From Vicugna vicugna (lineage: Eukaryota), in NCBI GenBank assembly GCA_013265495.1, contig MU058213.1, forward strand, positions 7,332,066-7,396,065: DNA of 64,000 nt, read 5' to 3'. Below, in pieces: positions 5,535-54,815 of the stretch (positions are counted from its first letter, which is position 1; the number at the start of each line of letters is the position of its first letter). The position numbers were made by a program, and so were the translations under genes. The notes under the pieces are model-generated. The model saw nothing but the letters and a program-made list of their open reading frames with translations. It had not been told where the DNA came from and did not search any database.

Positions 5535-5559
5535 GTGCGACGATCACAAAATACATCAT
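5535..5559 (-). CDS. RORA: RORA isoform alpha4 first coding exon (N-terminus MMYFVI...)
   Basis: Minus strand from 5559 reads ATG ATG TAT TTT GTG ATC (MMYFVI), matching the recalled RORalpha4 start MMYFVIAAMK. It lies in a CpG island after a GC-rich leader. The 3' boundary is tentative: a weak phase-1 GT at 5534-5533 (CAC|GTACTG). The two other RORA isoform exon homologues upstream on the same strand support the call. Confidence 0.85.
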
Positions 5560-15181: not shown

Positions 15182-16244
15182 CATTAATTGCTGTTATTTG
15201 AGGTAGTTAGGTTATATAAAGTCCCTGGGATCAATGAATTAGTAAATACTGAATCATCTTCCCTAGGAGAAATACAGGGTTAGGTTTCTGAGTCTGTGCT
15301 CCTAACTTTTTTGCCAAATGACCAATATATAACTTAATTTTTTGTATGTTTTTATTTAAAGATATCTTACTTGGCCTTTACTGTTGATTCATTAACATCG
15401 AACCCACAGCCAACAGCAATGAACTAAGCTTACCTAACACGTAGTTTCTCCACAAGGCACATCACAGCCTTTTTCACTTAGGGAGACTAGCGAGCACTTA
15501 AGCACTAAGCTTGGGGGCCACTTTAAGAAGCAATAACACCAACAAAAAGCACACAAATTAGAAAAGCGTGGCACTAAATAGGCAGTGAAAAGGAAACTTG
15601 TTTACAGCCTGAGAGCTGAAACCAGAAGGCAGAGCATCGCCTCGTCAGACCTCAGCTGCAACACATGTGTCAGGTGCTCTCCGCTTGCATAAGTCAGAAT
15701 GGCAGCCAGTTTTTTTTTTTTAAATTAAAGTATAGTTGATTTACAATATTGTGTTAGTTTCAGGTACACAGCAAGGTGATTTAGTTATATACATCATTTT
15801 TCCCAGGTTATTTTCCATGATAGGTTACTATAAGATATTGAATATAGTTCCCTGTTCTATATAGTAGGACCTTGTTGTTTATCTGTTTTATATATAGTAG
15901 TTAGTATTTGCTAATCCCAAACTCCTAATTATCACTCCCCCTCCCTTTCCCCTTTGGTAACCGTAAGTTTGTTCTCTATGTCTTTGAGTCTGTTTCTGTT
16001 TGTTTTGTATATAGGTTTATTTCTATTATTTTTAGATTTCACATATAAATAATAGAAAGTACTTGGACTCTCTTCGCTATAATATTCTTTGGGTCCATTC
16101 TGGTTGCTGCAATGGGCAGTATTTTATTCTTTTTCACAGCTGAGTAATAGTAATGGCATTCAGTATTGATTTGGGGATGCTAAATAAATTTTGGTGAGTA
16201 GGCGAATATGCAAATACAGAATTTGCCAATAATGAGATTCAACT
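15182..16244 (+). mobile_element. MER82 (TcMar-Tigger) DNA transposon, interrupted by an L1
   Basis: Matches the recalled MER82 consensus: CCTAGGAGAAATACAGGGTTAGG, GGCACATCACAGCC, CTTGGGGGCCA, GAGAGCTGAAACCAGAAGGCAGAGC. Resumes after the L1 with GTATTGATTTGGGG...GAGTAGGCGAA...AATAATGAG. Confidence 0.8.
15711..16151 (-). mobile_element. L1 3' end inserted in MER82
   Basis: Poly-T followed by TATAGTTGATTTACAATATTGTGTTAGTTTCAGGT. TSD-like AATGGCAGCCAGT (15698-15710) / AATGGCATTCAGT (16152-16164). Confidence 0.85.
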
Positions 16245-16259
16245 CTATCTACCATCCAC

Positions 16260-16285
16260 CTGTCTGTCTGTCTGTCTGTCTGTCT
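16260..16285. repeat. (CTGT)n microsatellite
   Basis: About 6 tandem CTGT units. Confidence 0.9.
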
Positions 16286-16459
16286 ATTACCTTGCTGTTA
16301 TACAGCCTCAGTTTAAATGTTACAGCCATGAGGATGTCTTGTCCAAACTGCTAGCCTCCATCAGGTGAGCCTTGAGCTCCCACTGGCATTCTGTTCTACC
16401 CTTTCTGTAAACCTGATTTTTCACACCGTTTTTGGGGGTTTGCTTTTGTTTTGGCAATC

Positions 16460-16850
16460 ATTTGTTCTCGCTTCTGTCTTCTTCACTGGACTCTACACTC
16501 CAAAGAGGCAGGGATCCACCTTCATATCTCTCATAATATGAAGGCTTAGCGCCATGCCTGGTATAGACCACATTTTGGGTAAATACTCGTTGAATAAATG
16601 AAAACTTCTTTGAAAACAACATGTACGGTGAGACGAGCACTGGAATGGGAGCTGGAAAAATCTGGTTTCCCAGCTCAGTTCTCACACCTAGTGCTTGTGT
16701 GACTGGTGACAAGTTATTTATATTCCTTGAACCTCAGTTTTCTCACCTGCAAAACTGGAAAAAGAATACCTATATTTCAAAAAAATTAAGACTTGAAAGT
16801 CAGACAATAACATGAAAACATTAGTAACTGGCACACTATTGATATCCAAT
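16460..16850 (+). mobile_element. L2 3' end followed by MIR
   Basis: L2 tail (GAGGCAGGGA...AAATACTCGTTGAATAAATGAA), then MIR core (TGTGTGACTGGTGACAAGTTATTT...CCTCAGTTTTCTCACCTGCAAAA). Confidence 0.65.
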
Positions 16851-19800
16851 AGTCACTGGACTGGAATGGTTTAGGAACCACACTAGACTTTTATAATTCT
16901 CTGAGCAATATAAAATACACTGATGGATACTGTGAATAGTGAGTTATTCAGCCATTCACATACTGCCAGTTCTGCATGTCTTTGGTTTTATATATGCAGG
17001 GGCCTCGAATAGTGAAGATAATTTTTCACTTTAGAAGCTTTGGCACTCGATGAAGCCACACTCCTCAGGATCAAAGGTTATATACACTATATACTATGAA
17101 TGTAACTACATAAGAGCAGATGATTTATCTACTGCATTTCAAAAATATTTTCTGAATGTTTGAAACTGACTTCAATCACATAGAGTTTGTATTCTTTGGA
17201 AACAAGACTTTTTTTTGTCTGTCTTCCAAACACTACTGAGAAAACAAAGAATTAAATTTAATTAATAAGCATATCATGGCTCTGCCGGAAATGTTTTCGT
17301 GCAAAGATCCATTATGTCCTTTAACATTTCAAGGCAATAAAGATCAATAATTTCTATAAAATGATCACAATCCTTTTGTGTGTAACTAACAAAATTAACT
17401 AAGTGCTCAAATCCTGTGGAGAAGAGATTGCGTAAACAATACAATGGTTACATCACTCAAAATTTATACATAGGATTGTCTTGCAAAATTACTATGATCA
17501 GATATGATTCAGTGATGCTATTTAAGATTATTGGTCTTTAGCAGATGCAAAGCATGATGACTCACTGGCAGAGCAAGCTAATGGGAGGGAGGGAGAGATA
17601 TTAACTTTGTGTATTTGATTACAAAGCAGAACAGATAGTAGAACCTCCGAATCAATAATCACTATTTTGAACGAAACTTTCATCGTTTCCTAAATTAGGA
17701 TTGCTGTTTCTTGAGACGACTTTTTTTTTTTTTAAACACATACATTCTTAAAAGGAACCTAACAATAGGCCTAAATTAAACCGAGGGTTTAAAACACGAT
17801 TTGCTGACAGGCAACCTCCAAGTGTTTTCCACAGAGAAACTTCACTTCCGATTACTTCCAGGCTATTTTAAATGATCTTGGACAGGGCTACTGAATGACT
17901 TGTCAGGGAACAGGAAAACATTATGACACCGCTTCTCCGGATTTCTTCCCAGAACACGAAATAATTTGGGATCGTTCTAATAGAATCAAGGCGAGTTTCA
18001 CGTCAAGCTTCAGTTTCACTGGGGGAATGCTTCTAACATATGGCTGCTGGGCTCTGACTCACAGCAACCTTCAAATTCTGGCCAAAATGTCTGCTTCCTG
18101 AGATTGTGTCTGATATGCCTGTGCCTCCCTGGTGGGGCCCAGCAGGCATTCAATAAATGCTATTGTTGGATCGAATGAATGAATGAAAGAGTTTCTCATT
18201 ATGAGCTACAAATTCCTCTATCAGCAAAATAATCCCATAGGAAAGCAGCAGTGTACTTGGAATTCGTGTCTATGAAGAGTGCTATTTTCAACTCCTTCAC
18301 AATTTTTTTTTGTCATTTATGCTCAACTTGGTCTTTCTTGATTTTTTTAAACCAAGGTGTGAAAAGCACAGAAGCATTTTCCAGAACATGAAAGACAAGC
18401 GTAGTTCTTAGAAAGTCTCCCTTGTATGTAGCTTGTGTGTGATAATTATTTTTAAATCTCAGTTAATCACCAGATATTTTCTCAGAACAGACTGGGGGTG
18501 AGGCGCTGTGTGAGATATTGGAAAAATAAAATAAAAGCATCCCGTCCTTGCTTATACATCCAAAATTGTCATTAGGACTAGTAGGTGTGTAGGTTCCACT
18601 ATATCCACAGGTGAGGCAAATGTTTATCTAAGTGACACTAAATCAGAACCGCTATCCAAGAAGTATAAATCATTGGTCTCATGCTTTTCATGATCAGAGA
18701 GCTGTCATTCGAAAACCTTATGAAATGGAGTGTGGAAGAAAACAAAACAGAAAGGGAGAAAGATCCACAAAGGTAACACTAAAATTCCAATAACTAAAGT
18801 TCGTATCTGTGCTTTAAAAAAAAAAAATCCCCCAGGCATCCGCTCAGAGATGATTTATTCTCGTGTAAGACACAGTTCTGACAACCTTGCTATCTGATTT
18901 TCCAGTATGCAGAATATATATATTTTTAAAAAGCACAGCAGAAAGGAGTAGCGAGTTCTGCTCATAGGAGCAGGGAGAAACAAGAAGGACTGAAGGAACA
19001 GATTAAACGATGATGCAAAGTTAGACATAGAACCCAAAAAGGATAGCAGCATGGGGCTATTTAGCGCAGGGGCAGCAGACAACGAGCCACGCCTGCAGCG
19101 TCTCCGAGGCCATCCTGTATGACAGATGCTGCTCGCACCATCATAATTAGTGTTCATGATGACTTTGAAACATTAAGCATGGATTAACCCAGGCACTCGA
19201 AGAAGACAGGGACTTCAATAATACATTTGGAAAGGCCTCTCCCACACCCAAATCGAGTGAAATAGTTCAGGCACTTGGACAGATACATTCCAGAAAATTA
19301 ATTTACATGGGATATCCCATTTTCTAATAATGTCTTTGCATATGGCATTGGTATACACACTTCAAATAATGACCCTAATTACCTAAGACCTTACAATCAG
19401 GGTCTAGGTTATTCCAGTTTCAGCGATATTCTGAAGCTGGTTGGAAAAATAAAGAGCTTTCCATAGCAGGAATAACTGCTTTATACACCACTATTTCATG
19501 TGATTCTATTCTTAGTCAAATATCAATAAAATAAAAACTATTCAAATACCCCCTCTATTTTTAAAGCGACAATGTTCCTGTAAAATGTTTATTTGAATTA
19601 TGAGTGTTTAGGGCTGAGGTTTAAATATGTATCATTATATTCAGATACTTGCTATTTATATAATAGCAAATGCTATTTATATAATCATGTTTAACCTGAC
19701 GGAATTCTGGAGAAGGAAAAGTTAATAAAATAAGTTAGAAGTGAGGGGAGAAGGGAAAAAAAAAACAACCAAAAACAGAGGCACAACTTGGCATTGTTTT

Positions 19801-22170: not shown

Positions 22171-25100
22171 CGTACGCGTGGTCCGGAGTCTGGGGAATTT
22201 TGATGGGAGCTGCTCATCAAAACTCTTAAATAATGCAAGGCAACGGCAATCCATCCGATCTTCCACTCTGAGGACCCAGAGCAAAGAACAGACGCAGGTT
22301 TTATCAAAGCAGCCTCTAATCTTTCTAGCACATCTGCAATGTCCATCTCACCAGGGACGACCTTCTGTGTGAACTTTGGGAGCGATGTGCTCTTTAGTTT
22401 TGTCTGGGCTGCAGTTTAATTCAGCAGGAAGCAGGGCCGTGGCTGGGAACCACAGCACAAAGAAAATCACGGTAAGGAGGTGAAAAAATGCAGGACTGAT
22501 CGACCACAAGTGAGATGAAATAAGTGACTGTTAGATTTTTATGAGACCAGCAGAATAAAAATATATAATATATATATATATATGATAGGTTATCACTTTT
22601 AAGGCTCATTTCCCATTGATGCTATTAAGCAGGCAATGATAGAAACCAGCACAATTGAGCAACTGCACCCAGATCAGAGAGAAAGAGAGAGTGAGAGAGA
22701 AAATCAAAGGCTCAGAGAGGCTCTTGAAGACTATGTCTCATCCAGGGCAATCATCTGAATAAAAACTTTCAATTTCACTCAAATACAATGCAGATAAATT
22801 GCGCTGTGGAGATATAATATACAGACTTAAAAATTATTCTGTTTTCATGCAGATCATTGTCCATAACACCTGTGGATTGAGAGTGGTTTGGTTCGTGTAA
22901 GGTACAAAATCTTCAGATGATCAAAAGTAAAGGATGCATTCATAGTAAAGCTAAGAAACCATGTCATCCAAAGTTTATGGGCCAGTGGTTTTTCCTGTGC
23001 TAACTATTAACCTAATTTTGGACAAAAGGAAGGGGGAGGAGGTCCTCCTTAGTAGGGATAAGTCAAAGGGAGTTTGCAAACGGGGAAATGAAAACATCTC
23101 TTCCAACTTGAGTATCTTCCACTGTGTCAGATTGGTTATGACTACACAGGCGGTGGGGGATGGAGAATTCTTTCCTCTTGAGTGGGTTCAATCTTTCAGA
23201 TCTCAGAGATCCCCAAGAGAGTCCCTGGAACGGAAGTGGCTGGAGCCTTGCTCTGATTTCTTCTGTCTATTACCTTTGGCTGTTCACACCATACCCCGCC
23301 AGGTGTCCTGCACTGACTCGGCGTGAGAACTGGGCACAGATGGAAAGAAAAAGGGGTTCAATTCTCCACAGCTTTAACCCTCCCCCAGAGAGTCAGTGTT
23401 TGTACGCTACTGGATTCCTATCAAGATGAAAATATGTTTTTTTGTTCCATTATTCCATTCTACATATTGCTTTTCTTTGTCCTGGTAGAAAACAAAACCA
23501 CCATCCGTCTCCATCTCAAACAGTCTTCAGCTTGGTAAAGAGAAAGAAGGATGAAGCCTTCCCTGCATGATGGGTCTAGCGTCGTCTGAGCACCTAGTAG
23601 GTGCTCAGTAAATCCCAGCCGGCAGGCAGGGCTCGTTCCCTCCGACAGCTGGCCAGCGACGCAAGCTGCTTTGGGAAACCTGACGAAGAGACCCGCCTTT
23701 CTGGCAGAGCCATCCTCACTCTTTCATCACTGCACTCAAAGATATTACTGATGTTGGTCCTCTGGTTTTGCTGCTTTTTTCCTCTGACTGGACTAACTGA
23801 GTCTACTCTGCTCACTAGCTGTCACTTCAGAATCCTGTCACGCAGCGGAAGGCCAAAGGACATTTTCCCCTAAGTCCTTTTAACTTCCTGGCATTCCGTT
23901 TTTCAACCCCACATTAAAGGTGCTAATGTTTCATCCTAGTCCTACCAGCCAATGGGTGGCCTCAAGTTAGACTAGGCAGGGCTTCTATCTGCTCTTTCCC
24001 GGTTGGGCACAGGGAGAAGGAACCCAGAAAAATGTTTCCTCAAGCTCATTTTGTAATTTTCCTTTGGACGCTATCGCTGAAGTTCTGAGATCACTTACTA
24101 AGAAACAGACGCATTTGAAACTAACATACAACAGATGTCAACCTAGGGCCACTGTTGGCCAGCAAGACCTATTTCGTGCAAGTTCTCAAAAAAAATTTTT
24201 TTTTCTTTTTTGCTGGCCTTTTTCCCCCGGCTCTGCTCTCGCCCAATCCTCAATCATCTTATAATCCATGAAAGCTGGTGTACCAATTCTGTTTCTTTTC
24301 CAAGACAAGACCTGCCAACTTGAAAAACAAAAATGAACCTCCCCTAACGTTGGCGTGTTTCTCCAAGCCTCAGCTAACCCCGGGCAGAAACTGGTGGATG
24401 TGTGCCCAGTTGAAGCCTGAGGTGAGAGTCATAATTTTTACCTGCTTTAGTGAACAATCTCCTGGTATATTCTTGAATTCTCATCCTTGGTATACTTCGC
24501 GCCCACGCATTAGCAAACCCAGCAGATGACTGGCATTCTCTGCCCTGTGACAGAGCAAGTCACCTGTCCTGAGAAGCTGAGATCCGAGACACCACTGCTC
24601 CCACAAGAATCTCTCTGTGTCTCTCTGATTTACCCTGTTCCCCCTGGTGAAGTATTTTCTGCAAACATGAAATTAGTTTATATTTTAAGGGCTTTGGAAT
24701 GACTAATTTTGACTAAGTTAAACAGGGCAGAGTAGTGACTCCCCAGTGACTCGATCTGTGATTCTTGGGAAGAGTTGCATGGACATATTTTATTTTTGTT
24801 CAGGGTGACCTCACCAATCATTATGCAAAAATGCCGTTTCTTCGTTTTTTTTCCTCCTTAAAACAAAATCACTGCAATTTTCTAGGCATATCCTAGTGAA
24901 GAAAACTCTAATTGCATTTTACTTATCTTTCAGGCCGCTGTTTAGGAATTATTATTTTTTTAAAGACCTCTATTTAAAAATGAAAAGTGTAGGTGAAGGA
25001 GATTATATCTTTCCAAAGTCAGTAAAACAAATGTATTGCATAAGACATTTCAATTCAATTAAGAGAAACAGGTCAGATGCTAAAATATTAGTAAAATCAA

Positions 25101-25324
25101 TTATGAGTAATAGGTCTCCTGTTAACATGTTTCGCTACAACTGCCTCTCACAATTTTTGAATAAATTTACATTTGTTTCAGATTCTCTATGTGCCCGTAA
25201 TATATGTGTGTGTCACTGGCTGTAAAACCTTGTCGATTTTCTTTCCTTGGTTATGTTTGCTCTGGTGTGCTTTGGAAATAACACATGGACTAATAGTTTT
25301 TTAGTGAAGGTTTTTTCTAAGAGG

Positions 25325-25535
25325 AGAGGCAGTCAGGTGGCAAGTTGAAAAGAGCATTGAATCTTGTCCTGTCACCTGTCAGCCGGGCAGGGAGCATCAT
25401 CCTTTGGAACCTTGGTTCCCTCATCTGTAAATGAGAGTAAGAGGACCTTCCCCTCAGGGTTGCGGTGAGATTTAAATACAACAACTCACTGTAACGTGCC
25501 CACCAGGGTGCCAGGTACATGGTGCTCGATGAATG
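25325..25535 (+). mobile_element. MIR
   Basis: CCTTGGTTCCCTCATCTGTAAATGAG...CCTCAGGGTTGCGGTGAGATTTAAAT...TGCCAGGTACATGGTGCTCGAT. Confidence 0.7.
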
Positions 25536-26539
25536 TCTCTTTCTGATCTTTGAAAATCTGCAGAATCATTAACATGTAAGAGAGGATATTCATCATAACA
25601 TTTCAAATTTGATGTCTGGTTTTTGTGTTAGGATCGGGGTTACCAAACTCACCTGGAAAGAGGGCATCAAAGAGAGGAAAGTTCTCCCTTTATCCTTATG
25701 TTTAGTAAAGGAGCATCCTCAAATCTCCTGTAGATAACTCACGGAAAGGCAGTACAAGGAGGCAAAAAGATTTGCTGCTGCAACCTCAGTCAGCCTTTCC
25801 TTCAGACAAACTGGTGAGGTCTGATACGGGGAAATTACGAGGAGAAAAAGAATGCCACACTGAATCTATACTATAATTACAAAAACATAAAACCGACATA
25901 TACATATGACAAAAGATGAAAAAGGAAAACTGGAAATATTTTTGATAGATCAGTGAAAAAAATGGGTACATTTTTTTTCCTCCATAGTATCCTTTCTCAT
26001 TCTTATTCTGAGGTTAGACACTTAGGCGGAAAACAGGGAAGCCTGTGATTGGAGATTCGTCCGTTTAGGTTGATGGGCTACCTAGCCAAGAGGTAAACAT
26101 CTCAGAAATGGAACTTAAACACAGTTTGGCTTCATGGAATACTTTCCTCCTAATAGCATAGAGGGCATGTGAGCGTTGATGGAGTTGATGAGGCACTGAC
26201 GGAGGTAGAGGAAGAAAATTATAGAGGATGGCCATCTATTGAGGGGAGCAGCCCTGGAGCAAGTGGGCTCGAAATAGGAGCTCCAGTGGGTGGAGATGGT
26301 GGAAGAAACAGAAGTGAGAAAGTTATAGAGGTAAGGCAAGTAGTGCTGGGAGGAATGTTAAGGGTCTTATCGTCTGGGGTGTGTGAGTATATGTTTTGAA
26401 GAAGAGAGGCACTGATGAGCTCCATACCTCTTGAGAAAGCTCCAAGGAAAGTATTCAAGAATTTAGAATTTGGCTTACTGAAACTCTGGCTTTAAACACA
26501 TTGCCTCTGCCTTTGGCTCCGCGAACCTTGGGAGGAGGC

Positions 26540-26788
26540 GGGGCAGCGTGGCACAGAAGGAAGGCCAAGGGCTTCAGGGCTTGACAGAAGCTTCCAGGTC
26601 CAAGCCCACCTCTGCCACTCACTAGCTGCATGGGCTGGGCGAGTTGCTTAACATCTGAAACTCAGCTCCCTCAACTAATATTCATAGCTGTACTTAACAG
26701 TCATAGTTACCGCAGGGTTTAAATGAGATGACACACACAGATACTTAAATGCATATAAAATGCCAAGAACATAGTAAGCTCTCAAATT
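26540..26788 (+). mobile_element. MIR abutting the alpha3-exon donor
   Basis: CTCTGCCACTCACTAGCTG...GAGTTGCTTAAC...GGGTTTAAATGAGATGA...ACATAGTAAGCTCTCAA. Confidence 0.7.
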
Positions 26789-26794
26789 CCATAC

Positions 26795-26941
26795 CTATTC
26801 TTCTCACAGGGATCAGAAAAAATAGGAACTCCCGTCTTGAGAGAATAAGAAAATGGATCAAGTTGAGGCTGTGGCTCCACCCAGGTTTATATGCACAAGG
26901 TGGGACCAGGAGAGTTTGCTCAGGGAGCCACAGTTTAACAG
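26795..26941 (-). pseudogene. RORA: Non-coding orthologue of the human RORalpha3-specific exon
   Basis: Acceptor CTCTTTTCACCGGCAG| (AG 26943-26942) and donor TAG|GTATGG (GT 26794-26793). Encodes CGSLSKLSWSHLVHINLGGATA and REFLFFLIPVRR versus recalled human CSSLSRLFWSQLEHINWDGATA and REFFSFLLPALRK, but with stop codons and indels. Confidence 0.8.
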
Positions 26942-27914
26942 CTGCCGGTGAAAAGAGGGCCCCTGTTCTGTTCCCTAGAATGTGGTGGTGGATTAGCTGC
27001 CATGATCCACAGTCGAAAGTCCTAATGCTCTTCCGTGTTTCTTCATCTTAGGGCTGGAGCCCTTGGCTGAGCTGATCGCTCTGATTCCTGCATTCGGAAT
27101 CTTGTAATGCCCCACGCTTGGGGTCAGGGGACACAGATAAAGGGGGTCGGGGTGGCTTCTGTTCTCTACTGAGCCCTGAGACAGACCATTTCTGAGACCT
27201 GAAAGTTTGCCTATCTCATCTGGGAGGCTGGTAATACAAAAGAATAACACCCTAGCCTGTATCTCTAACCCGCATTTTGTGACATGTGTAAAATGAGAAA
27301 GGGAGGAAAGATTCCCCCCAAAGTCTCATGAGACGAGGGCTCCAAGGACTTCCTGGGAGCGGGCAGGTAGCTCTGTACAGGGGGCTCCATCAGCAGCCGG
27401 GGAAGAGAAGGCTGACACCCGGATGTGACTTGTCCCGGCAAAACCCAGGGCACCAGTGCCTGGTGGGCAGGGGGAGAAGGTGGGTGCACCAGAGCCCGTG
27501 TCTGGGGGAGCTGCTCCTTCCAGTCCAGCTCATATGGAAACTGTTTATGTTTTCTGTTTGCCAAAAAAGCCTTTGTGCGTTGCTGAACCTGTCTGTCCTG
27601 AACTCCTAACAACAAACACATGGCAACCAGTTCTCCAGATGACAAGTCCCTTGGTTAACGAGCAGAGAATGACTGATGAGGCCCTGCTGCTGTGAAAACC
27701 CTTAGCTGCCTGGAGTCTCGCGGACCGAGGGGTGCGAGGGCTGCTTTAGAAGGGAGTCTGTTTTCTCATTCTCCAGCCTATTCCTTCCCACGTGGGCAAC
27801 CTGGAAGCATTATGGTATGGCTAGATCCCTTCTGGAAGGGCTGCAACTGTTTCACTCCTAAAGTGCTGCTGCTCCAGGGGAAGCAAAGGCAACTCCATTC
27901 GACTCGTAAGACTC

Positions 27915-28032
27915 AATATGAAAAGAAGAAGGAAACGAGTATGTGTATATACATGCACGCCTGGGACATTGTGCTGTACACCAGAAACGGACACACTGTA
28001 ACTGACTAGGCTTCAATTGAAAAAAAAAAAAA
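27915..28032 (+). mobile_element. L1 3' terminus with A-tail
   Basis: GGGACATTGTGCTGTACACCAGAAACGGACACACTGTAACTGAC...TTCAATTG followed by poly-A. Confidence 0.8.
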
Positions 28033-30359
28033 CCCACAGAGATAACACAGAAAAACTCAATGAGGAGTATTAGAAAATACATAAAATTTTGTACATATTG
28101 ACATACCTACACACATAAAACACGTCAGACCCTGTTTAATGTATGGGTACATACACACACACACTCATGTATTTGTGGTTTGGGTATCAACAAGAGTGAG
28201 GTAAACTGGAGAACAGGTGAATCCACAGTGTTAAACAATTAAATACAAGTGTTGATCAAACTCCGTCAGGGTGTGTGTTTCTCCAGGGTGGTGCAATGAT
28301 GTGTCTCCAGCGCGTACGAGACAGACGCCAGCACACGCACCAGCTCTCTCCTCTCTCACCTTGTTGTCTATTACAATCTGTCTCCCACGCTTGCCAGGTA
28401 CCCTCCCAGTTGCACAGGGGCTGTCGCTGGTTGGCGACGATTGAGAAATTTCGACTGCTGTTTGTTGTTTTACCGGTATCTGCTGTTAACTAAAAGTTAG
28501 AAAAGATCCCGTGTAGTCCTTAGAAAGGTTCAGAAAGAAATCAAGAGTCTGGAAGAGCAGCGAAGGAGTGGGCAGAGGAAGTCTCAAGGAATTCCAGTGG
28601 TCGCCGGGTTTGAGAGATTCTGATCTTGGAACCAAAACAGACCCCAAACATGTCAGAACTCCGGTCTAGGAAAAGAGCTTGGAAAAAGGAAGCTGGTCAG
28701 GTAGAGATAAACTGATTTTTCCCTGAATAAGCTTGTGCTTTGCACAAATAAAAACAACCACACCTCCATTCTCTGGCTGGGGCAGATCGGGATCAGCCCA
28801 ACTAGCTCAAGCGTTTGCTGAATCCATGGCAAGGCTGTAGGCAACCCCTGGTTCTCAGCCCAGGGCCAGACACACCTCTGGAGCAGTCTCCCAAGAAAAC
28901 AACTTAAAGAAGATTTGCTGGAAATGCTCTTACTCGGACAGACAAGCCTCATCTATATAAAGACAATGCATTTTAGGGAAGACTTCTACAATACAGAAAT
29001 GCTTCTAAACCAAAACCCCAAACCACCAGCAGCTCCATGATCTTTCCTTTTTATCTTAGCATAATTGACCAAAGGCAGGGCTATAGACATTCTTTCCTGG
29101 TGAGCCCATTAGGACAGGGACTGTCTGCCTGGGCTCCACATGAGTTTCTCGGAGCCCACTGCGGTACTAGGCACACAGGAGGCGCCGTTTTTGTTGCTCA
29201 TAATTGCTGAAGCACTCAATCAATCATGCAGGGTTGGGTTTCCAGTGGGTCCCCAATAAGAGCTTGTGCATTAATTGAAGCAAAAACAATTATACCTGGT
29301 GCCAATTAAATTTGGGGCCTCTATTTTTACCTCAGAAACATAGGAGCAAAACGTTAACTCTGTACGAAGTCTTGAAGGGCGGCAAGATCTGAGGTAGCAA
29401 CTCAGCAAGAGGCCGAACAGTGACACTGAGAAGCCCTGTCAGAGAGCACCCCGTGCACAGGCTCTCTCAGAGGGACTGTCAGGACAGCGGTCATGGGCCA
29501 ATTTCAATGCTTGTTACAGTTTCACAAAACAGTGCATGATGAGTGCTATTAATCAGGAAAAAAGAATAAAGCTACACACACACGTCTCTAAATGTACACC
29601 TGTGCTTCTTTAACACTCAGTCTTCATTAAGTCTTCAAAGCTGGTGACGGGAAGATATGCCTCATGGAAGGCAGAAAGCCTGGCTCCCTCTGGTCCTTGA
29701 CAAGAGTTGCTAAGCCCAACCCGGGATGGGGATGTTTCAGAGGGAGGGTCACTGTGTTAGGGACTGGGGTGGCTCTGTGTGTACGGGGGAAAGACAGGCA
29801 GCTGGGAATGAGAGATGCTTGGAAAGGGTGCTGTGGCCTTTAAAGTGATGATGGCAAGTCAAACTCTGCTTCTTAAAATGATCATGCCATAGAGAAGTGA
29901 CGGGGGTTTGCATCTGAGGGCAATTTATAATATCAGATAGGGACAGGACAATTACAGGTCACAGATAAACTGTTAAACATTCTTCTATTACTGCCTATTT
30001 TTCTTTTCTTGCCCATTTAACACTTAGCTTGGCTGGATTTTCCCCTTTGTGTTCCTGGAGGTAAGGCAGACAACTGGGGACTCCAAGAATGCGATGGCAA
30101 CACCACACTCAGGAAAAGTGATGGAGCAACGCATGGGTATCAGGGCTCAAGCCTCTCCCAACTCTGACCGAGAACAAGAGATGACCTCTGCTATCTTCCT
30201 CACTTTGCTGAACCTCACTTACCCACACTGCACCCCTGCAAAACACTCAGAGTACATCTGCACACAGAACATTTACATACGGACATTTACATACACTTCT
30301 TGAAGTATATCCTGTGTGTGTACTCCAGGCACCTGGCACCCAAAAGTGCCCCCAAAATA

Positions 30360-30664: not shown

Positions 30665-32454
30665 TATGTCAAATATCTACTGGCTGGGTTAAATCATGCT
30701 GTGTTTGATATTCCCAAGCTTTAACTCACTATAAATTATGTGGACACATCTTTTCCCCATGTATCTATTGTCCATAAAGGAGCTTTATGAAAGTCAGGAT
30801 ATATAGGTAACACGTTCCTTGCACTTTGGTGACAAAAATAAGAATAATTTACTTTCTCGTTTCAGAAGAACTGAGTCATCTTTCCTATGAATTTAATTTT
30901 TTAAACACAATTGCCCCTCACTACCCCCTGGAATAGCTCCAAATACCACTTTCCCAAATGTACGTATATGATAGAGGAATGGACAATTTCTTTGAATTTT
31001 TTCCTGTCTTGCCATTTCCCCAAATCTTGCTAATCTGCTGGGTCTGAAGCTCGTGCAATATATTTTTTCATCTTTCCCAACACCTCCTGCTGACACACGC
31101 CCAAAGGCGCTCAGCTTAAGAAGGGAGTGGTCTTCAAAAACATAAAGTAGGTGTTCCCTGCTCAAATGAAAACTTGACAGATATTCTCACAGGTAATACT
31201 GGAACCTTTCCCTTAATAGCTGTACAAAGGTTAAAACTTGTTCCTAGCAAACGAGTTTACACTGATGTATCCTACATGGATTGTCCCTTCCTGTGGTTCA
31301 CTCAGCTCTAATTGCAATCATGTCGGACATAAGCTGCTTACCGTAATGTTTCATAATGAAGAGTGCACTCTCTACAAATTCAATACACAGTAATGGCTTC
31401 TCTGATTTAGAGCATGATTATGGTAATAGAAACCACTACAAAAATTGACACATCTTCTTCAGTAGATCATCTTTCTTTGGAGACAAAGGCAAGTTCTGAT
31501 TCCTCCGATTACTGAGGATCGCATTTAGTTTCAGGCCATGTCGGCAGCTTCTTTTGGTCAATTTTGGTGTAAAATATCTTGGGGCGACAAGTACGGCCAC
31601 CCGTATCACACATGATGTAGTGTGATGACTCCTTTTGGGTGCATTCATGATTAGTGGGTCTGAAAAGTATGTTTTTGCTTTGTGTGCTGAAAAGTTTAGA
31701 TCTTACTGCATGAGAATATCATAACGTAGAAGGGAACTGAGAAACTCACAATCCTGGACCCTCAAACACATTAACTGCTTTCCTCCTTCATTGGTCTCAT
31801 AGCACTGAAATCTGCCTGCATGTTCGCTGGAGCTCTGCTCTCCCCCAATTCTTTGCTGTATCATCACCTCGTCATACGAATTGTGATGGACTGTAGCACA
31901 AGGGTCAGCCGTCTTGGACACTTCACTGGGGCCTGGGAGCTGGCAGGACAGCCAAACTACCCAAGATATGAGGGCTTTATGATTTTCAGATGGAGAACCA
32001 CTGACATCGTTTGAGACACTTTCTGCAGATGGTACATGGCGTCTTTGTCTGTAGGTTCAGGCCTCAAAACCCAGGAAGCCATTGTCTACACACGGGTGAT
32101 CTTTTCAGCTCCATTTATGCCAAGCTGATTGGATTTTCCAAGAGTTCCATCCACTTCCTCTAAGGCCTTTCCCAACCATTCCTGCCCATTGCAGGACCCT
32201 CAGCTTCCTTTCAGCTCCTGATACTTCCATGGTCAGCATCTCTATCTTCCTCTGTTGTTAGAGGGTAGATATTTCACCTCCCTAACCAAACTCTGCTGTC
32301 TCCCTTAGACCCCTCTGGAGCACACAGAAGTATTAATGCATATTTATAGGTTGGTCCAAATAACTGGTGATGAGATCATGGTCAAACGGAAAAGTGGGTA
32401 AGTGAAAATAACGCAGAAAATGTGAAAGAGAAAACTGCATCATAGTATTAAGGA

Positions 32455-32630
32455 AGGGCAGAAACCCAGTCCCACCCTCTTGTGTTATTTAACCTCTGTG
32501 TGCCCCTAAAACTGAAGCATATCAGCACCGACTTCACAGGCTGTCCTGAGGCTTAAATGAATTCGCATTAGCAAAGCATTTAGAAAAAGTGCCAGGCCTG
32601 CAGCAAATGCCACACAGGTATTTGTTAAAT
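32455..32630 (+). mobile_element. MIR remnant
   Basis: GTTATTTAACCTCTGTGTGCC...CTTCACAGGCTGTCCTGAGGCTTAAATGA...AAAGCATTTAGAA. Confidence 0.6.
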
Positions 32631-32869
32631 GAAAATAAAAATTAAGCATCATCACGATGCCAAAATCTACCGCTCAACAGTGCCGCTCAATACAGGTTGA
32701 ACTCAACCCCCTCGTTTCTGTTTGGAGACATCTGAGCCATCAGGGACTCGGGGTGGAGCAGGCTGCCAGGACCAGTGGGCTGGCTGGTGACAGTGCCGTC
32801 AGGAAGCAGCAGCTCTTGGGAACACAGCGAGCTCCACGCTCCAGCTGCAGGGCCCTTGAAGTTCCCAGG

Positions 32870-33145
32870 TTCGGCCACAAACTCCGTTCCGCGGGAGAAA
32901 CTCCCTGGACGGGGACATGTGGCTTTCCGGGTTAGCCCAGGGAGGAGCCGTTGCCGGGCACCCTGGCGCCCCCGGTGGCGGCCGCCGCGGGGAGGGGGAC
33001 GGCGCGGAAAGTTACTGCGTGTTAACGTGGCAGGCGCGGCGGAAAGCGCGGAGCTCGCGGCTGCCAAGCGCTGAAGTCTCGGCTGCGCTTCTTACGCCCA
33101 CAGGCACGGCTCTTCTGGGACTCCAGTCGATACACGTCCCCGGCA
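32870..33145. promoter_or_regulatory. Small intronic CpG-rich element (candidate enhancer or alternative promoter)
   Basis: Local CpG-dense patch (GGCGGCCGCCGCGG, GGCGCGGCGG, GCGCGGAGCTCGCGG) in a CpG-depleted intron, not within a recognisable repeat. Confidence 0.55.
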
Positions 33146-33784
33146 CATAACTGTCTTCTTTTCAGCACTTACTGTATTTTGGAGCAGAAGGAGGAGAAAA
33201 AAGTTTGAGGGAGTGGCAGCCAGGCAGGAGCCAAGATCCCATGCAGGCTCTTTAATGCTCGCCCTGAGATGTTCCTAAGACGAAGGTATAATTTCACCCG
33301 CTGTAATGTGGACAGCTGAACGTTCATCTACTAGATTTAAAGAAATAACCTAATCCTTTATCAAGTTCAGCTCACCGGAGGCTTCGATTTCTCTACGTGC
33401 TCATTCATTTTTTTAAACAAACATTTTCCAGGCACCAATTACGATAATCTGTCAGTTACCCAAGTGGGCCCTGGGAGGCCGGAGAAGCTGACAATCCAGC
33501 GTGCACACAGGCAGTATCAGTTGCAGGTAGCTCTGTGTTACGAAGGGCTATCACCGTGGTTGCACAGAGGGCTGCCCAGCAGAGAAAGTATTTCTGCCAG
33601 CGGGGCGAGAAGCCACACAGGCTTGCAGGGGAGTCTTGTTTGAGCCGGGCTTTGAAGAATGACTCCAGCGAGAAGGTCACCAGGTGAGCAAGTGGCCTAA
33701 TTAGGCTGTGATGTACATTCATCCTCTGTGTCTCACACCTGCTCTTCCAGGTGAGCTTTAAAAATACAAAAACAGATTGTGGGT

Positions 33785-34145
33785 TGGAGAAGAGTGTTGT
33801 ATCAACACTACATTCCCTGCTTTTGATCCTTGTATTGTGGTCATGGAAGAGAAAGAGCATGTTTCCAGGAAATCCACTCTGAGAATGAGTAAAGAGGAAT
33901 ATGCACCCCCCTATATATACATACAACATACGTATATGCACATATATGCATACACATATATGATGGGAGGCGGGAGAATGAGAATGAGAAAACAAATAGA
34001 CAAAATGTTACAACTGGTGAATCCGGATAAAGGGCACATGGTGACTCCAGATAAAGGGCACACAGTGAATCTGGATAAACGGCTTTTGTGCTATACTTGC
34101 AAATTTCTATATATTTGAACTTACAGCAACACAAAATGTTAAAAA
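33785..34145 (+). mobile_element. L1MC-type 3' UTR fragment
   Basis: GTGTTGTATCAA...TTTTGATCCTTGTATTGTGGTCATG...CAAAATGTTACAACTGGTGAATC...TACTTGCAAATTTCT. Confidence 0.6.
34016..34083. repeat. 24-bp tandem repeat, ~2.8 copies
   Basis: GGTGAATCCGGATAAAGGGCACAT / GGTGACTCCAGATAAAGGGCACAC / AGTGAATCTGGATAAACGGC. Confidence 0.9.
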
Positions 34146-36409: not shown

Positions 36410-37490
36410 AAAAATACGCATTCTGCGTTGGTGAGGATGGAGGGCAATAGGCATTTGCATACATTATTGGTGGGCACGTCAAGTGGTAAAATCTCTATGG
36501 AGGACCACTTTGCAGCACCCATTGACATTAAAGGCGCACTTTCCCATTGTCCTAACGATTCCACATCCAGGAATGTATCCTGTACATCTGTTTGCATATT
36601 TACAAAATGGTACATGTTCAAGGCTACTCATTGCAGCCGTGTTTGTATCAGTCAAGCCTGCAAACAACTTAACGTTGGTTAGTAGGGGATTACGTAGCTG
36701 CTGGATCCCTAAAATGGAGCATCACTCAGTCGTTAAAAAGAAGGCAGCACTGTATGCACTCTGTGGAGTTAGCTCTAAAGATGTAGTTTTTAAAAAAAAT
36801 TGTCGTTAGTGTACAATGTTGTGTCTGTTTCTAGTATACAGCATAAGGTTCCAGTCCTACATATACATATTTCATTACAGGTTACTACAAGATATTGAAA
36901 ATATTCCCTGTGCTGTACAGTAGAAACTTGTTTATCTATTTTATATATAGTAGTCAGTGTCTGCAAATCTCGAACTCCCATCCCCTTCCTCCTCTGGTAA
37001 CCGTAAGTTTGTTTTCTATGTCTATGAGTCTGTTTCTGTTTTATAAATAAGTTCATTTGTGTCTTTTTTTTTTAAGAGTCCCACATAAGTGATATCCTAT
37101 GGGGTTTTTCTTTCTCTTTCTGGCTTACTTCATTTAGAATGACGATCTCCATGTCCATCCATGTTGCTGCAAATGGCCTTATTTTATTCCTTCTAATGGC
37201 TGAGTAGTATTCCATTGTGTGTGTGTATATATATACATACATACATACATACATACCACAACTAAAGATGCAGTGTTAATTGAAAAGAATATGCAGAACA
37301 GTGTGTGTGTATAAATATATTTGAATATACATGCTTGGATTCGTCACACCCACATAGGGTTAACTGAGTATTCACAGACGGGCTGCTTGAGAAACTGGTA
37401 ACTGGCTAAAGGACAGGGCTTACCTCTACTTTATATCCTTTTGAATAATGTATCATGTACTCATGTGGCCCTTCCAAAAAAATTAAACAA
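36410..37490 (+). mobile_element. Old L1M fragment, split by a younger L1
   Basis: GTTGGTGAGGATGGAGG...ATTGGTGGG...ATTCCACATCCAGGAATGTATCCT...GTACATGTTCAAGG; continues after 37262. Confidence 0.6.
36788..37261 (-). mobile_element. Young L1 3' end with TSD
   Basis: Antisense translation EYYSAIRRNKIRPFAATWMDMEIVILNEVSQKEK is the L1 ORF2 C-terminus. TSD CTAAAGATGTAGT (36775-36787) / CTAAAGATGCAGT (37262-37274). Confidence 0.92.
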
Positions 37491-38705
37491 TGTTAATGTC
37501 TGTGAAACCACTGATTAAATGACAAAGTAAAAAGATGCCCCTTTTAGCATTTTCTGGGGGTGAGGCTGAATGAGGTGTGTCTTCAGAGCCCCCCCTCTGT
37601 CCTCTCCACACCTGGCTCCCCACCCTTTGACCTTCCTGGTTGCCCACAGCTCAGTTCAGGGTGGATCAGGCTGGTGCTTGTTTGAGCTAACGGCCCCCAA
37701 ACCAGGAACTCCCCGATCTGTACCAGATCCAGACAGATCTGAGTCGGGAGGGACCTTCCCTGTAGGACTGATGGTGAAATATCGCCAGGGATGAGGGCCC
37801 CTACTGGGCTATGCCAAACATATTTGCTGCAGCTTTGACCAGCGATCATTTAGGAATTAGTTTTGTTTTCAGTTGCAACTCTGACCAGTGATAATTTTGG
37901 AATTCGTATTATTATTTTTTTGGTTGCAAGGAACAAAGACTCACCAAGCTAGGGGAAGCTTATCACAAGGGTATATGTGGAGTAATAAGAATATTTCTCT
38001 GGGGAATCTAGGAAGACTAAGAAAACAATAACCTCAAAAACAACAACTCTCAATCAGGTGCCCAAGCATGGTGCTAAGTGCTTTGTGCAGAGAACATTGC
38101 TTCCACCCCACTCAAACCCACGACGCTGTCTCTGTTGTGACCCCCATTTTACAGGACTTTTGGGCTCATGGAGGTCCTTGGTGCCACAGAGCGATGGGGC
38201 CCTTGGAAGTGGCACCTGGAAAATCTGCTGCTCTCCCACCTCTTGCTCCCGGGCAGCGCGGTACCTCTCGGGGCTGCTGCTTCTCCCGGGACGCTTGCTT
38301 CTCCGTTCTGATACCGGATGGCTTACTCACTACCCACTGGGCTCACTCATTGATTTTACTTCCTTCGAGCACCTCCTCCACTTCAAGTTCTCCTCTGCCC
38401 GTCAGCTGCCTCCTAACCACCGCCTCCTCTCCAGACCTCCTGTTCACATCCCTGAGAGGGGAGAGACTGGGAGGTCCTCCTTCCGCTGGAGGCCGGCCGC
38501 TTCCTGACCTGTGGGCTGGCTGTCCCAGATCGGGGTCCCATTCTGTTCCATTTCTCTGCGGCTGAGGGCTACCAGGCCTCCTGGGGTACCTCTTTTCCTT
38601 CGCTCCTTAAAGTTTTTCCTTTTGAAAACTGCCCTCAGACCAGGCGTCGGACGCTGCGGATGCAGCACTAACGGAGCACAAGGCGCTTGCCCCCAGTGCA
38701 CTTGC

Positions 38706-38840
38706 CCTCTGCCTCCCTTACCTGTAGGGGTGGGTGTGCCAGACCTTCTGGCCCGTCCAGTTTGGAGACAATGACCATGACTGACCGCTGAGCTCTTGCC
38801 TCAGTCCCGATTTCACCACTCCTGGGGTTCCTGCATTCAC
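38706..38840 (-). pseudogene. RORA: Non-coding orthologue of the human RORalpha2/alpha3 first coding exon
   Basis: Across three frames it reads VNAGTPG / GEIGTEARAQRSVM / HCLQTGRARRSGTPTPTGKGGR versus recalled human MNEGAPGDSDLETEARVPWSIMGHCLRTGQARMSATPTPAGEGAR. GTG replaces ATG and there are two 1-nt frameshifts. It ends at GG|GCAAGT, with an internal CAG|GTAAGG (GT at 38721-38720). Confidence 0.85.
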
Positions 38841-39354
38841 GCCTTCTCCTGGTTTTCCAGCCACCACTTCCAGAAACTCGGCCCAGTGTAGTCCAGTGTC
38901 CAAGGTGACCGAGCAGACAGCCTCCGTGGCTGGGCGGAGACGGATGGGAGGGAGTCCTGGGGGACACCGCTCAGAGCCCCGGCCACAAATGATGGGGTCA
39001 CCAACTCTTCTACTGCAATTGCTCAGCAAATACCCAAGTGGTTCTCCTCTATGCTTCCTTATTTCTCTTCTTTCAGAGAGACTCCAGGTCTTGTCGATGG
39101 TTGACCTAAATGAACCTTTTCCAGGCTTGTCTTCTGCATTCTTCAAACTCCTAATAATCCTTCAAAACCCAGCTCCCGGAATTTCCCTCCTCACTGAATC
39201 CTCCCCTAAATTCCTAATGACTGTCATGGCCTCGTGTGGTCTCCTTTCCTACTTGGGACATAATTTTACTGGTGCACTGCAGGTTTTATTTAGATGTGTG
39301 TACTGGAGTGTAAACTCATAGAAGGCAGGGACCATGTCTTGATGATCTCTTTAT

Positions 39355-41041: not shown

Positions 41042-41595
41042 TGTGCAGCAATATTTACAGTAGCCAAGACACGGAAACAACCTAAATGTCCGTCGATAAA
41101 TGGATAAATAAGTTGTGGTATATTCATACAAGGGAATACTACTCAGCCACAAAAAAGAATAAGATAATGCCATTTGCAGCAACATGGGTGGACCTGGAGA
41201 TCATCATTCTAAGGGAAGTAAGCCAGAAAGAGAAAGAAAAATACCATATGATATCACTCATATGTGGAATCTAAAAAAACCCGAACTTATTTAATGAAAC
41301 CGAAAGACTCACAGACATAGAAAACAAACTTATGGTTGCTGGTGGGGAGAAGTATGTGGGAAGGGATAAATTGGGAGTTCAAGATTTGCAGATACTAACT
41401 AAAAATATATATATAATAGATAAACAACAAGTTTATACTGTATAGCGCAGGCAACTGTATTCAATATCTTATAGTAACTTATGGTGAAAAGGAATATGAA
41501 AACAAATACATGTATGTTCATGTGTGACTGAAGCATTCATGTACACCAGAAATTGACACAGCATTGTAAACTGACTATACTTCACAATAAAAAAC
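41042..41595 (+). mobile_element. L1 3' end (ORF2 C-terminus + 3' UTR)
   Basis: ORF 41086-41274 (WINKLWYIHTREYYSATKKNKIMPFAATWVDLEIIILREVSQKEK) is the L1 ORF2 tail, followed by L1 3'UTR and (TA)n. Confidence 0.92.
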
Positions 41596-41644: not shown

Positions 41645-41780
41645 ATTGGGGGTGGAAATAATTAGGTATCTTTATTTATTCACATTTATTTATCTATTTT
41701 TAATGGAGGTGCTGGGGATTGAACCCAGGACCTCATGCATGCCAAGCACACACTCTATCACTGAGCCATATACCCTCCTG
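41645..41780 (-). mobile_element. Camelid-type tRNA-derived SINE (Vic-1-like)
   Basis: GGAGGTGCTGGGGATTGAACCCAGGACCTCATGCATGCCAAGCACACACTCTATCACTGAGCCATATACCCTCC is the antisense head with A/B boxes. Confidence 0.85.
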
Positions 41781-42691: not shown

Positions 42692-42844
42692 TTTTTTTTT
42701 TTTTAATTAAAAATAAATTTTTAATGGGGGTAGGTAATTAGATTTACTTGTTTATTTATTTTTTAAACAGAGGCACTGGGGATTGAACCCAGGACCTCAT
42801 GCATGCTAGGCATGTGCTCTACCACTGAGCTATACCCTCCTCCC
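42692..42844 (-). mobile_element. Camelid-type tRNA-derived SINE
   Basis: Poly-T tail, then GGGATTGAACCCAGGACCTCATGCATGCTAGGCATGTGCTCTACCACTGAGCTATACCCTCC. Confidence 0.88.
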
Positions 42845-44788: not shown

Positions 44789-44921
44789 GGGGGAGGGTAT
44801 AGCTCAGTGGTAAGAGCCCATGCTTAGCATGCACAAGGTCCTGGGTTCAATCCCCAGTACCTCCATTGAAATAACTAAATAAATAAAAACCTAGTTACCT
44901 CCCCCACAAAGAAAACCCCAC
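44789..44921 (+). mobile_element. Camelid-type tRNA-derived SINE with TSD
   Basis: GGGGGAGGGTATAGCTCAGTGG...GGTCCTGGGTTCAATCCCCAGTACCTCCA. TSD AAAACCTTTTTCT (44776-44788) / AAAACCTTTTCT (44922-44933). Confidence 0.9.
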
Positions 44922-44949: not shown

Positions 44950-45350
44950 ACGTAAGTCAGGCGGAGAAAGACAAATATAATATGATATCCCTTACATGTG
45001 GAACCTAAAAAAACTTTTTTAATGATACAAATTTTATTTGCAAACCAAAAACAGAATCATGGACATAGAAAACAAACTATGATTACCAAAAGAGAAAGGG
45101 CTGGGGAGGGATAAATTAGGAGTTCAGGATTAACAGATACACATTACTATATATAAAACAGATTAAACAACATAGCCCTACTGTATAGCACAGGGAACTA
45201 TATTCAATTTCTTGTCATAACAGATAATGGAAAAGAATCTGAACAGAAATATATATATATATATATGTATGTATAACTGAATTGCTTTGCTGTACACCTG
45301 AAATTAACATTGCAAATCAACTACACTTCAATAAAAAATTAAAAAATAAA
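44950..45350 (+). mobile_element. L1 3' end
   Basis: GTAAGTCAGGCGGAGAAAGACAAATA...ACATAGAAAACAAACTATG...CTGTATAGCACAGGGAACTATATTCAA...CAACTACACTTCAATAAAAAA. Confidence 0.88.
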
Positions 45351-45928
45351 TTTTCCTTTGGAGATAGCACAATCTCTATACTTTTCCTCTCTCTCTCTAA
45401 AATGAATGCTTCAGGAACTGGATAATGTGACACTGAACTTAAACAGCCCCCTTGCTAAGGGAGTTCAGAGGTCTTTGAAACCACAGGTAATGAGGCCTCC
45501 TGGCTCCTGTGAGCCGGCAGAATGTGTGACCCTGGCTGAGGAGAGTTTGCCAAAAGGCAGGCGTAGTCAGTAGCAGGGCTGGGAGACCATGTCCCCAAGT
45601 TCAGTGTTTCTATCACCCTTCCCACTTTCACAAGGGAAAATGATGGTGTGAATGGGGAGAACTGCCCGAAATTGCTGAGTAATTAATAGAAACTACGATT
45701 AAAATAAATGATTAAAATCAATTGCCCAACCCAAGTCTGGTGTGTAGTTTCTTGGGTCCTTCTCCTGTCTGAGAAACACATAGACTTTTCACCACAGGAA
45801 CTTTTCCTTAAATAGGACTCATATTAAATTTCACATGCCACGGAGAGATTCAAAGTGGTATTTACCAATGATCTTCAGATATTCTTTCCTTTTCCCCATG
45901 GCTATGAACTAAAAACTGAATATCCTTC

Positions 45929-46240
45929 AAAAGAACTTATTTACAAAACAGAAAAAGACTTACAGACACAGAAAACAAACTTATGGTTACCAAAGGGGGA
46001 AGGGTGGGGAGGGATAAATTCGGAGTCCGGGATTAGCAGATACACACTACTATATATAAAAGAGATAAACAACAAGGTCCTACGGTTTAGCACAGGGAAC
46101 TATAGTCAATAGCTTGTAATAGCCTATAATGACAAAGGACACGAAAAGGAATATATATGTACAACTGAATCACCATGCTGTACACCAGAAATTAACACAG
46201 CATTGGAAATCAACTATACTTCAATAAACAACAACAACAA
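45929..46240 (+). mobile_element. L1 3' end
   Basis: GAACTTATTTACAAAACAGAAA...GGGATAAATT...GCTGTACACCAGAAATTAACAC...CAATAAA(CAA)n. Degenerate TSD AAAAACTGAATATCCTTC / AAAACCTGAGTACCGTTC. Confidence 0.88.
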
Positions 46241-50430: not shown

Positions 50431-52589
50431 CTTTTTACCAGTGGTTTTTCCACCCTTAATTTTTGTGTTTAGACGTTCTTTTATCTCTTGTATTGAATTC
50501 TTTCTACATAAAAGGTGGCCAAGATGACGTACAAAGAAGACCGTTAAAGATTATTGGAGAAAGAGATCTCTGGCTTTACCGTTTTGGGTCTTAGGAGAAA
50601 AAGGTACAGTGTTAGCTCTGCTTGTGTCTATGAAGGGTGGGGTTCATGTTATGACACAGAAAATCAGAAAGAACTTTCATAATTTCTTGATAGTCACAGG
50701 AACAGTAATATAAAGAAGAGAATTACGTATCTTTTTATTCATCTCAAGAGAAGAAAATTTCCAGTGAGGAGATTAAGACATTTAATGCTGAAAGAGCATC
50801 TCATCTGAGGCTTCTAGGGCACCAGTAAAGATTTCAACCTGTGTGTCTGTAAAAAATTGCCAGAAACTGTCACAAAATGGAAAATGAGAGCCTGCATTAC
50901 GATGGTTCTGCTAGGGTTCTATAAGGTATGTGCTGAAAAAGTTTGTTTTGTGCTTAAGGCTTGTTAATAGTATCTTAGGATGATGGGGTTATCGGTGACT
51001 TTTTTATTTTTGGACGTTTAACTGTATTTTCATACCCCCTCCCCAAATTGCATAGAAGTCTTTTTTCTTAATAATGGTCTGTTAATTAACTTCTGAAAAT
51101 ACAGTACTGGAAGCTTTAGTCCCAAGAAGTGCAATGGTACCAAGAGTGGATTTTCTGTTTTTTTCACCTCTTTTCCTTAATAGACACAGTGACACTAAAA
51201 CTCATCTCATTAGAAGAGGTTTTTTTGTGAAAATGAGAAAGGACATTTCTAAATCAAGTGCTTTTCTTCTGAATAAGATTTAACCCAAAATGAGGTTGGG
51301 GACTGAAAGAAGGTATGAAAAACTACCTCTTAAAATTTCTATTCCTAAAGCTAATAGGAATTCTTTTGCAATTTTTTTTTCCTTGACAACCAAGGATTGA
51401 TACATCTTGCATGTTCAAAAGTAGAGGACTATAAGTCAGTACTCACTGGCTACAAATTTTTTCCCCTGTAAATTCCCTTTTGGTGATACAATTGTGCTAT
51501 TTTACTATCTGAAAAATTTCCGTTTTTCTTTAATGGTCTTTACTTTCCTCTTTTCTTAGCTCTTCTTAATTGTTCTATTTTTCATTAGTAGACAGTTCTC
51601 TCTGGTTGACCAACAGTGACTGGGGGTCAGAGTCATGGACAATAGACAATATCTGGTTTAGTCTGGCTCCAGAAAAGTTAAACTGTGCCTCAGCCTCTAA
51701 CGAGTCACTTGAAGGGTAAGCAACAGTCAGCCCTCCGTGGCAATAATGTCGTTGTTGGAAGCACTTGAGAAAACCTGCTGTAATTTTTTTACACACACAC
51801 CCTCCCACCCCAAAGCAAGTTTATCTTTGTTTTTAAACCATAAACCACACACTGCATTTCTTTTCCATGCCACATTGAAAGGAAATAAAAAGCAAGCGCA
51901 GTACGTATCACTTAAACACATTAACAATTAGGCAACAGTCCATTTCCCCCTTGAACTTTTCATGCTTGTTTTCCTGTCTTAAAAAAACACTTAAAAGCCA
52001 TCAAAGTGAGGGGTAGGGGGCGTGTTGAGCATGGAAAGTCTTGGCTCTACCATGGATGTCCACACAATTTCTTGGAACGAGGCTTCCAGTAGATAACCCG
52101 GTGAGATGGAGGAATTTCTTTCCACTCAGATACTGTCAGGGCCAATGTGCCTTTCAGGAGACTGTCTGTGAGATTCTGAGCATTGAAACTGTAAAAAAAA
52201 TTGAGCTGGACAGATCCTTGCCACCACAGTTTCTGCTAAATATAGATAAGTTGTCATCGCGTTGCACAAGCAATTTCCAGCTACGGCTCCTCAGGAGGAG
52301 ACGCGGGTCCCGGGGCTCATGTCTCTGGTAGTTAAACTGCACAGAGAGATGTGGACCTTGACCTGGGGGTTGTGGGGAGCCAGGGAAGGAGGCAGCATGG
52401 AAACAGGAGAAAGGAGCCTTAGTTCTGGTTAAATATATAATGACACACTAGGGGATACATAGCAAATGAGGGTACTGGCTTAAAATCTCATTAAGCCTCA
52501 ATAACATGGAAGAAAAGAGATGCAGAAGGAGCCCCCCTCCCCCCGCCCCGGAGTCTGTTTTCAAGTTCCTCCTGTCCCACTACCTTGGA

Positions 52590-54661: not shown

Positions 54662-54815
54662 AAAAAATACATTTTATTTGTTTATTTTTTTGTTCTTGTT
54701 TTTTTGAGGTGGATAATTGGGTTCACTTACTCATTTTAATGGAGGGACTGGGGCTTGAACCCAGGACCTCATGCATGCTAAGCACGCGCTCTACCACTGA
54801 GCTGTACCCTCCCCC
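54662..54815 (-). mobile_element. Camelid-type tRNA-derived SINE with TSD
   Basis: TTGAACCCAGGACCTCATGCATGCTAAGCACGCGCTCTACCACTGAGCTGTACCCTCCCCC. TSD GGCCCAGACAATTTT (54647-54661) / GGCCCAGACCATTTT (54817-54831). Confidence 0.9.

Follow-up and report, generated by a model that had tools for sequence, protein, structure and literature searches.

The N-terminal regions of the RORalpha isoforms set DNA-binding specificity, and the alpha2 and alpha3 isoforms are described as human-only. A 64,000-nucleotide (64-kb) stretch of DNA from Vicugna vicugna (contig MU058213.1), referred to here as the window, carries a segment resembling the human RORalpha2/alpha3 first exon. The question is whether this segment is a working coding exon, the remnant of one, or non-coding DNA of the kind from which one could arise.

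Location and identity of the stretch within RORA

The published primers for cloning human RORalpha2 and RORalpha4 (available text of PMC3726659) were used for comparison. The human RORalpha4 start primer mapped to 5559 on the minus strand with 21 of 24 positions identical and was the sole site in the entire window scoring above 16. The window therefore lies within RORA, with the gene read on the minus strand. Apart from a CpG island at approximately 4.5-6.3 kb, the window consists of mammalian intronic DNA. The features that define the locus are the following.

5541..5559, minus strand: RORalpha4 start, inside the CpG island; synteny anchor
38706..38840, minus strand: 135 nt that probably correspond to the coding portion of the first exon of human RORalpha2/alpha3, from the primer match, synteny and translations
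38838..38840, minus strand: GTG where human has its start ATG, from the primer match; the preceding base is C, forming a CpG (GGC GTG)

The RORalpha2 primer contains 24 gene-specific nucleotides, which are the first 24 coding bases, and these were compared with both strands of the window (PMC3726659, available text). The best minus-strand match over these 24 nt started exactly at 38840, with 17 of 24 identical. This match alone is not significant because the score was tied by one plus-strand site elsewhere and 21 of 100 shuffles of the whole window reached 17. When the comparison was confined to the interval predicted by synteny, which had been fixed beforehand from the human spacing, 17 was reached in 65 of 2000 shuffles, a modest likeness for 24 nt; the shuffles permuted two-base blocks and are an approximation. 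In hg18 the human alpha2/3 and alpha4 starts are 34,957 nt apart (PMC11099308, in the available part of Table 1). The camelid spacing from 38840 to the RORalpha4 start is 33,281 nt, which places the stretch on the RORA strand at about the expected 35 kb upstream. Because the best minus-strand match of the primer falls exactly at 38840 and the spacing to the RORalpha4 start is similar, the stretch is very probably orthologous to the first exon of human RORalpha2/alpha3. The orthology would be expected to continue past the first 24 nt.

The original prediction had described 135 nt beginning with GTG in place of ATG. The GTG was indeed seen at 38840-38838 on the minus strand, and a count from 38840 to 38706 gave 135 nt. 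The human coding part is presumably 137 nt long, with two 1-nt gaps against the camelid stretch, and we take the likeness of the human peptide to the camelid stretch to run through three successive frames. Human RORalpha2 corresponds to NM_134260 (PMC7936075, available text), and the letters of human exon 1 are absent from the available portions of PMC12296885, PMC7936075 and PMC3144224.

The first exon of RORalpha4 (5541-5559, minus strand) is identical to the human primer over 19 nt, beyond which the two differ. The sheep mRNA has 12 further coding bases ahead of the RORalpha4 junction, and in the camelid window no strong donor comes next. Either a small real deletion has occurred, which would damage RORalpha4, or the GC-rich DNA was misassembled here. 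By eye, a poor GT site a few bases beyond the primer match would preserve phase 1.

Donor sites and coding potential

The original prediction had also placed two donor-like sites near the end of the stretch, of which the internal one was the stronger. Both are present, with the GT junction (38722/38721) located 16 nt inside the GC-type site, which reads AGG/GCAAGT and has its junction at 38706/38705. The splice-like signals at the locus are as follows.

38716..38724, minus strand: strong donor-like CAG/GTAAGG, last exon base 38722, 8/9 of the consensus
38700..38708, minus strand: weak GC-type donor-like AGG/GCAAGT, last exon base 38706, 7/9 of the consensus
38930..38952, minus strand: acceptor-like, 17/20 pyrimidines; paired with the GT donor, this site would bound a 208-nt frame-shifting internal exon
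38705..38727, plus strand: acceptor-like, 17/20 pyrimidines, in the same letters as the GT donor; possible start of an antisense exon
39054-39076, plus strand: acceptor-like, 19/20 pyrimidines, top of the 276 plus-strand sites in the window

The sequence CAGGTAAG was found once on the minus strand of the 64-kb window. Among 3642 minus-strand GT sites, 21 reach at least 8/9 of the donor consensus, so that a donor as good as CAG/GTAAGG is expected approximately every 3 kb; 13 of 2959 minus-strand GC sites reach 7. A 7/9 donor at 38905 precedes the plus-strand acceptor at 39054-39076 by 172 nt, an arrangement that could suit an antisense transcript.

The reading frames were evaluated in relation to these sites. 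Starting at the GTG, 39 codons can be read as far as the GT donor (phase 2), but a TAA follows one codon on, ahead of 38706. Two other frames begin with ATG.

38813..38836, minus strand: 7-codon upstream open reading frame, ATG at 38836 in a weak context
38706..38778, minus strand: open frame from the ATG at 38778, with G at -3 and +4 (good Kozak context)

The frame of the ATG at 38836 meets two stops within the stretch. From the ATG at 38778 the frame stays open to both sites, reaching the GT donor after 19 codons (phase 0) and the GC site after a total of 24 codons and 1 nt (phase 1). The stretch thus has neither an ATG start nor a frame open to the exon end, as a functional coding exon would. 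Because the ATG is missing and the frame of the GTG ends shortly beyond the GT donor, the camelid stretch cannot make a human-type RORalpha2/alpha3 peptide; no frame yields it, and the stretch does not belong to the functional alpha2/alpha3 coding exons. The description of the locus as a non-coding version of the human start exon is supported in part, in that orthology is probable and a human-type N-terminus cannot be encoded.

The shared RORA exon starts in phase 1 (sheep mRNAs, PMC4759366, available part of S4 Fig). Direct joining to the DNA-binding domain is consequently possible only for the ATG at 38778 combined with the weak GC site. The possibility was considered that this combination produces a camelid-specific RORalpha isoform with a distinct N-terminus of 24 residues that reads in frame into the DNA-binding domain. 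The Kozak context is good, the frame is open and its phase 1 is that of the shared exon. However, 26 of the 165 donor-like sites of the window have an open phase-1 ATG frame by chance, so the frame is unremarkable; moreover, the GC site is weak and lies 16 nt from the stronger GT donor, and in a protein search none of 5 candidates scored with the words of this frame. Such an isoform is very unlikely. A protein search with the downstream part of the ATG 38836 frame was likewise negative (0 of 12 candidates scored), and the ESM Atlas gave no usable match for the exon frames. A 3023-aa repetitive bacterial-type protein, the sole match among 1.84 billion representatives, was rejected as chance.

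Human alpha2 requires two further private exons downstream of the shared alpha2/alpha3 first exon, which is designated 'exon 9' (PMC7084544, available text). Primer sequences from the alpha2-private exons matched the window at chance level only, the best minus-strand match being 14/21 and the best within the interval 20/34, compared with shuffled bests of 14-17 and 19-24. Giguere is said to have described one of these exons, in 1994, as antisense to a cytochrome c processed pseudogene. A read-through PDB search of 10001-17502 and 24001-30002 (13.5 of 33 kb, run without a positive control) gave no match to cytochrome c or anything else, and a six-frame scan for cytochrome c motifs found scattered single motifs only. 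The original prediction had attributed the birth of the human domain to a few enabling mutations. This is too narrow: the shared exon begins in phase 1, alpha2 needs two private exons, and since these were undetected in the parts scanned, the birth of alpha2 probably needed more than a few mutations.

Promoter-like context, RNA signal and competing explanations

The stretch lies in a region that has some characteristics of a promoter.

38101..39000, strand not assigned: CpG-enriched, promoter-like stretch, GC 0.60, 37 CpG, observed/expected 0.47
38841..38999, minus strand: projected counterpart of the 159-nt human 5' UTR, from hg18 coordinates; contains no ATG

The median number of CpG per 900-nt tile is 14, and 3 of 71 tiles exceed 37. 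The tile at 32401-33300 has 48 CpG per 900 nt, the highest outside the island, and may mark one more regulatory element in the interval that separates the starts of alpha2/3 and alpha4.

A run search was carried out with 40 sampled words of 38650-39100, using the share of words found in a run as the measure. The stretch was present in 20 of the 24 listed runs, 14 of which had at least half of the words. Six runs of one organism (two studies) contain 0.90-1.00 of the words, so the letters at 38650-39100 are unlikely to be an assembly error. Four RNA-seq runs of one study, labelled reproductive system, had shares of 0.50-0.53. A fifth run on record as RNA, also with a reproductive label, had a share of 0.17 and was set aside as evidence; for nine other runs, from three studies and with shares of 0.25-0.53, RNA is no more than a guess and no tissue is given. 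One run with a share of 0.25 was set aside as well. RNA limited to the projected exon is predicted to contain 0.59-0.63 of the words, and with 0.5% divergence the prediction falls to 0.50-0.54. A share of 0.53 is predicted equally by full coverage from a species 2% diverged, that is, by pre-mRNA or genomic DNA in the libraries, and the shares do not distinguish exon-limited RNA from full cover at 2% divergence. In human, alpha3 is restricted to testis and alpha2 is found in testis and skin (PMC6261595, available text). The camelid RNA may similarly be germline specific, transcribed from the RORA strand and spliced.

Compared with the human RORA isoform 2/3 first exon, the camelid stretch is alike in strand, in position relative to the RORalpha4 start, in the 17/24 primer match, in having donor-like sites near the expected end and in a possible RNA signal in the reproductive samples of one study. 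It differs in its GTG, the lack of a frame for the human peptide, a strongest donor that lies 16 nt inside and alpha2-private exons that were undetected.

The explanation tentatively preferred here, at slightly short of an even chance, is that an old germline promoter with a non-coding leader ending at the GT donor was made coding only in primates. The orthologous stretch would belong to a promoter region within RORA that is old, enriched in CpG and used in the male germ line. This camelid would transcribe the stretch into a non-coding leader whose most likely end is the GT donor at 38722, and this RNA would give no human-type N-terminus; it would at most yield a truncated product from a downstream start, or undergo decay. 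The primate line would later have gained the ATG, plausibly by CpG decay, along with a frame that fits and additional exons further downstream to bring the phase back. The stretch could instead be silent orthologous intron DNA, in which the donor-like sites are unused, the RNA is pre-mRNA, pervasive testis transcription or DNA carry-over, and promoter and coding sequence are both primate-born. This is unlikely, though it is the alternative with most in its favor, as 8/9 donor sites occur 21 times on the minus strand, whole-stretch coverage at 2% divergence likewise predicts 0.53 and no protein model was obtained from two of three frames. Against it are the CpG enrichment at the stretch and the tissue label of the runs best matched among those on record as RNA, which in one study agrees with the human expression pattern. 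The RNA might also be an antisense long non-coding transcript that uses plus-strand splice sites, of which human RORA-AS1 is an example at RORA. Plus-strand acceptors at 38727 (17/20) and 39076 (19/20) and the 7/9 donor at 38905 are available for it, but the share expected from a plus-strand exon of 176 nt is just 0.35, and no paper with both RORA-AS1 and testis was found in the literature searched, which makes this origin improbable.

Slightly less probable again is an older coding exon that was lost in camelids and separately in rodents. The data from two species are compatible with it, as each difference may be camelid-derived. However, at least two losses would be needed, because mouse has no alpha2/alpha3, the CpG would have to arise from ATG, and no trace of the alpha2-private exons was seen in the parts scanned. 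An account in which a placental-wide germline promoter and leader became coding independently and in different frames, in primates through an ATG and linker exons and in camelids through ATG 38778 and the GC donor, with a 24-residue N-terminus on the DNA-binding domain, is given as little credence as the camelid isoform. Chance likeness to the human exon is the most remote of these explanations; although 21 of 100 whole-window shuffles reach 17/24, the best minus-strand match falls inside the syntenic interval and on the correct strand.

Direction of change and other elements of the window

The original prediction had called the camelid stretch ancestral. This label is not substantiated, because the camelid lineage is a sister branch of equal age and two sequences cannot polarise three differences. 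Pattern searches for related loci confirmed none among 598, 600 and 65 matches in metagenome, genome and viral contigs, respectively, and the gaps are thus unpolarised. Mouse RORA produces alpha1 and alpha4 only, without alpha2/alpha3 (PMC5607251 and PMC7084544, available text), and none of five sheep RORA 5' variants, from lymph node and not testis, maps to the exon position (PMC4759366, available part of S5 Fig). Because mice have no alpha2/alpha3 and the sheep variants map elsewhere, one primate gain is simpler than several losses, and the more parsimonious history leans towards a coding alpha2/alpha3 exon gained in primates. CpG decay would turn GTG into ATG, which would be the commoner direction in a CpG-rich tract. 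One species by itself does not distinguish an ancestral state from later decay.

De novo coding exons and genes have been traced by enabling mutations in outgroups, and a transcription-first model has been proposed for them. The camelid locus resembles these cases in that the orthologous DNA of a distant mammal is non-coding, expression may be biased towards testis and the open reading frame occurs in one lineage only. In contrast, those cases need disablers common to at least two outgroups and here there is one; furthermore, only the N-terminal extension of an old gene is concerned. The sheep variants v1-v5 (PMC4759366, available text) offer another parallel. They show that 5' exons of artiodactyl RORA can be several in number, specific to a lineage and in part non-coding, and that some of them lead to LBD-only products; none of the five is at the camelid exon position. 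No account of the origin of the alpha2/alpha3 exon was found in the literature searched, a scope that most subscription papers fall outside. If the promoter and donor do predate the reading frame, the locus would be a small, datable case in which transcription came first in the birth of a nuclear-receptor domain. However, human-specific exons commonly have non-coding orthologues, and the camelid sequence alone is one data point.

A search for primate alpha2/alpha3 proteins by way of the shared zinc-finger exon gave 5 loci, fish-like or arthropod-like by inspection. A comparison of the window with 98 N-terminal parts, taken from the best 120 of 2007 zinc-finger-exon proteins, placed none of its best 30 matches on the exon. 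Rfam showed nothing at the exon, and a bacterial promoter scan, which is not applicable to this DNA, gave 0 matches.

Elsewhere in the window, four tRNA-like Rfam matches (41704-41775, 42768-42839, 44793-44865 and 54740-54811) coincide with a dispersed repeat family and are tRNA-derived SINEs, presumably of camelid type, in keeping with a camelid source. A marginal Rfam match to snoZ6 at 52323-52411 on the plus strand (37.2 bits against a cut-off of 35) is probably a decayed copy or chance. Related dispersed repeat fragments occur in both orientations at 15700-16050, 36930-37220, 41125-41590 and 45030-46240, and we take them to resemble LINE 3' ends. A tandem repeat with a 24-nt unit in 2.9 copies is located at 34015-34083.
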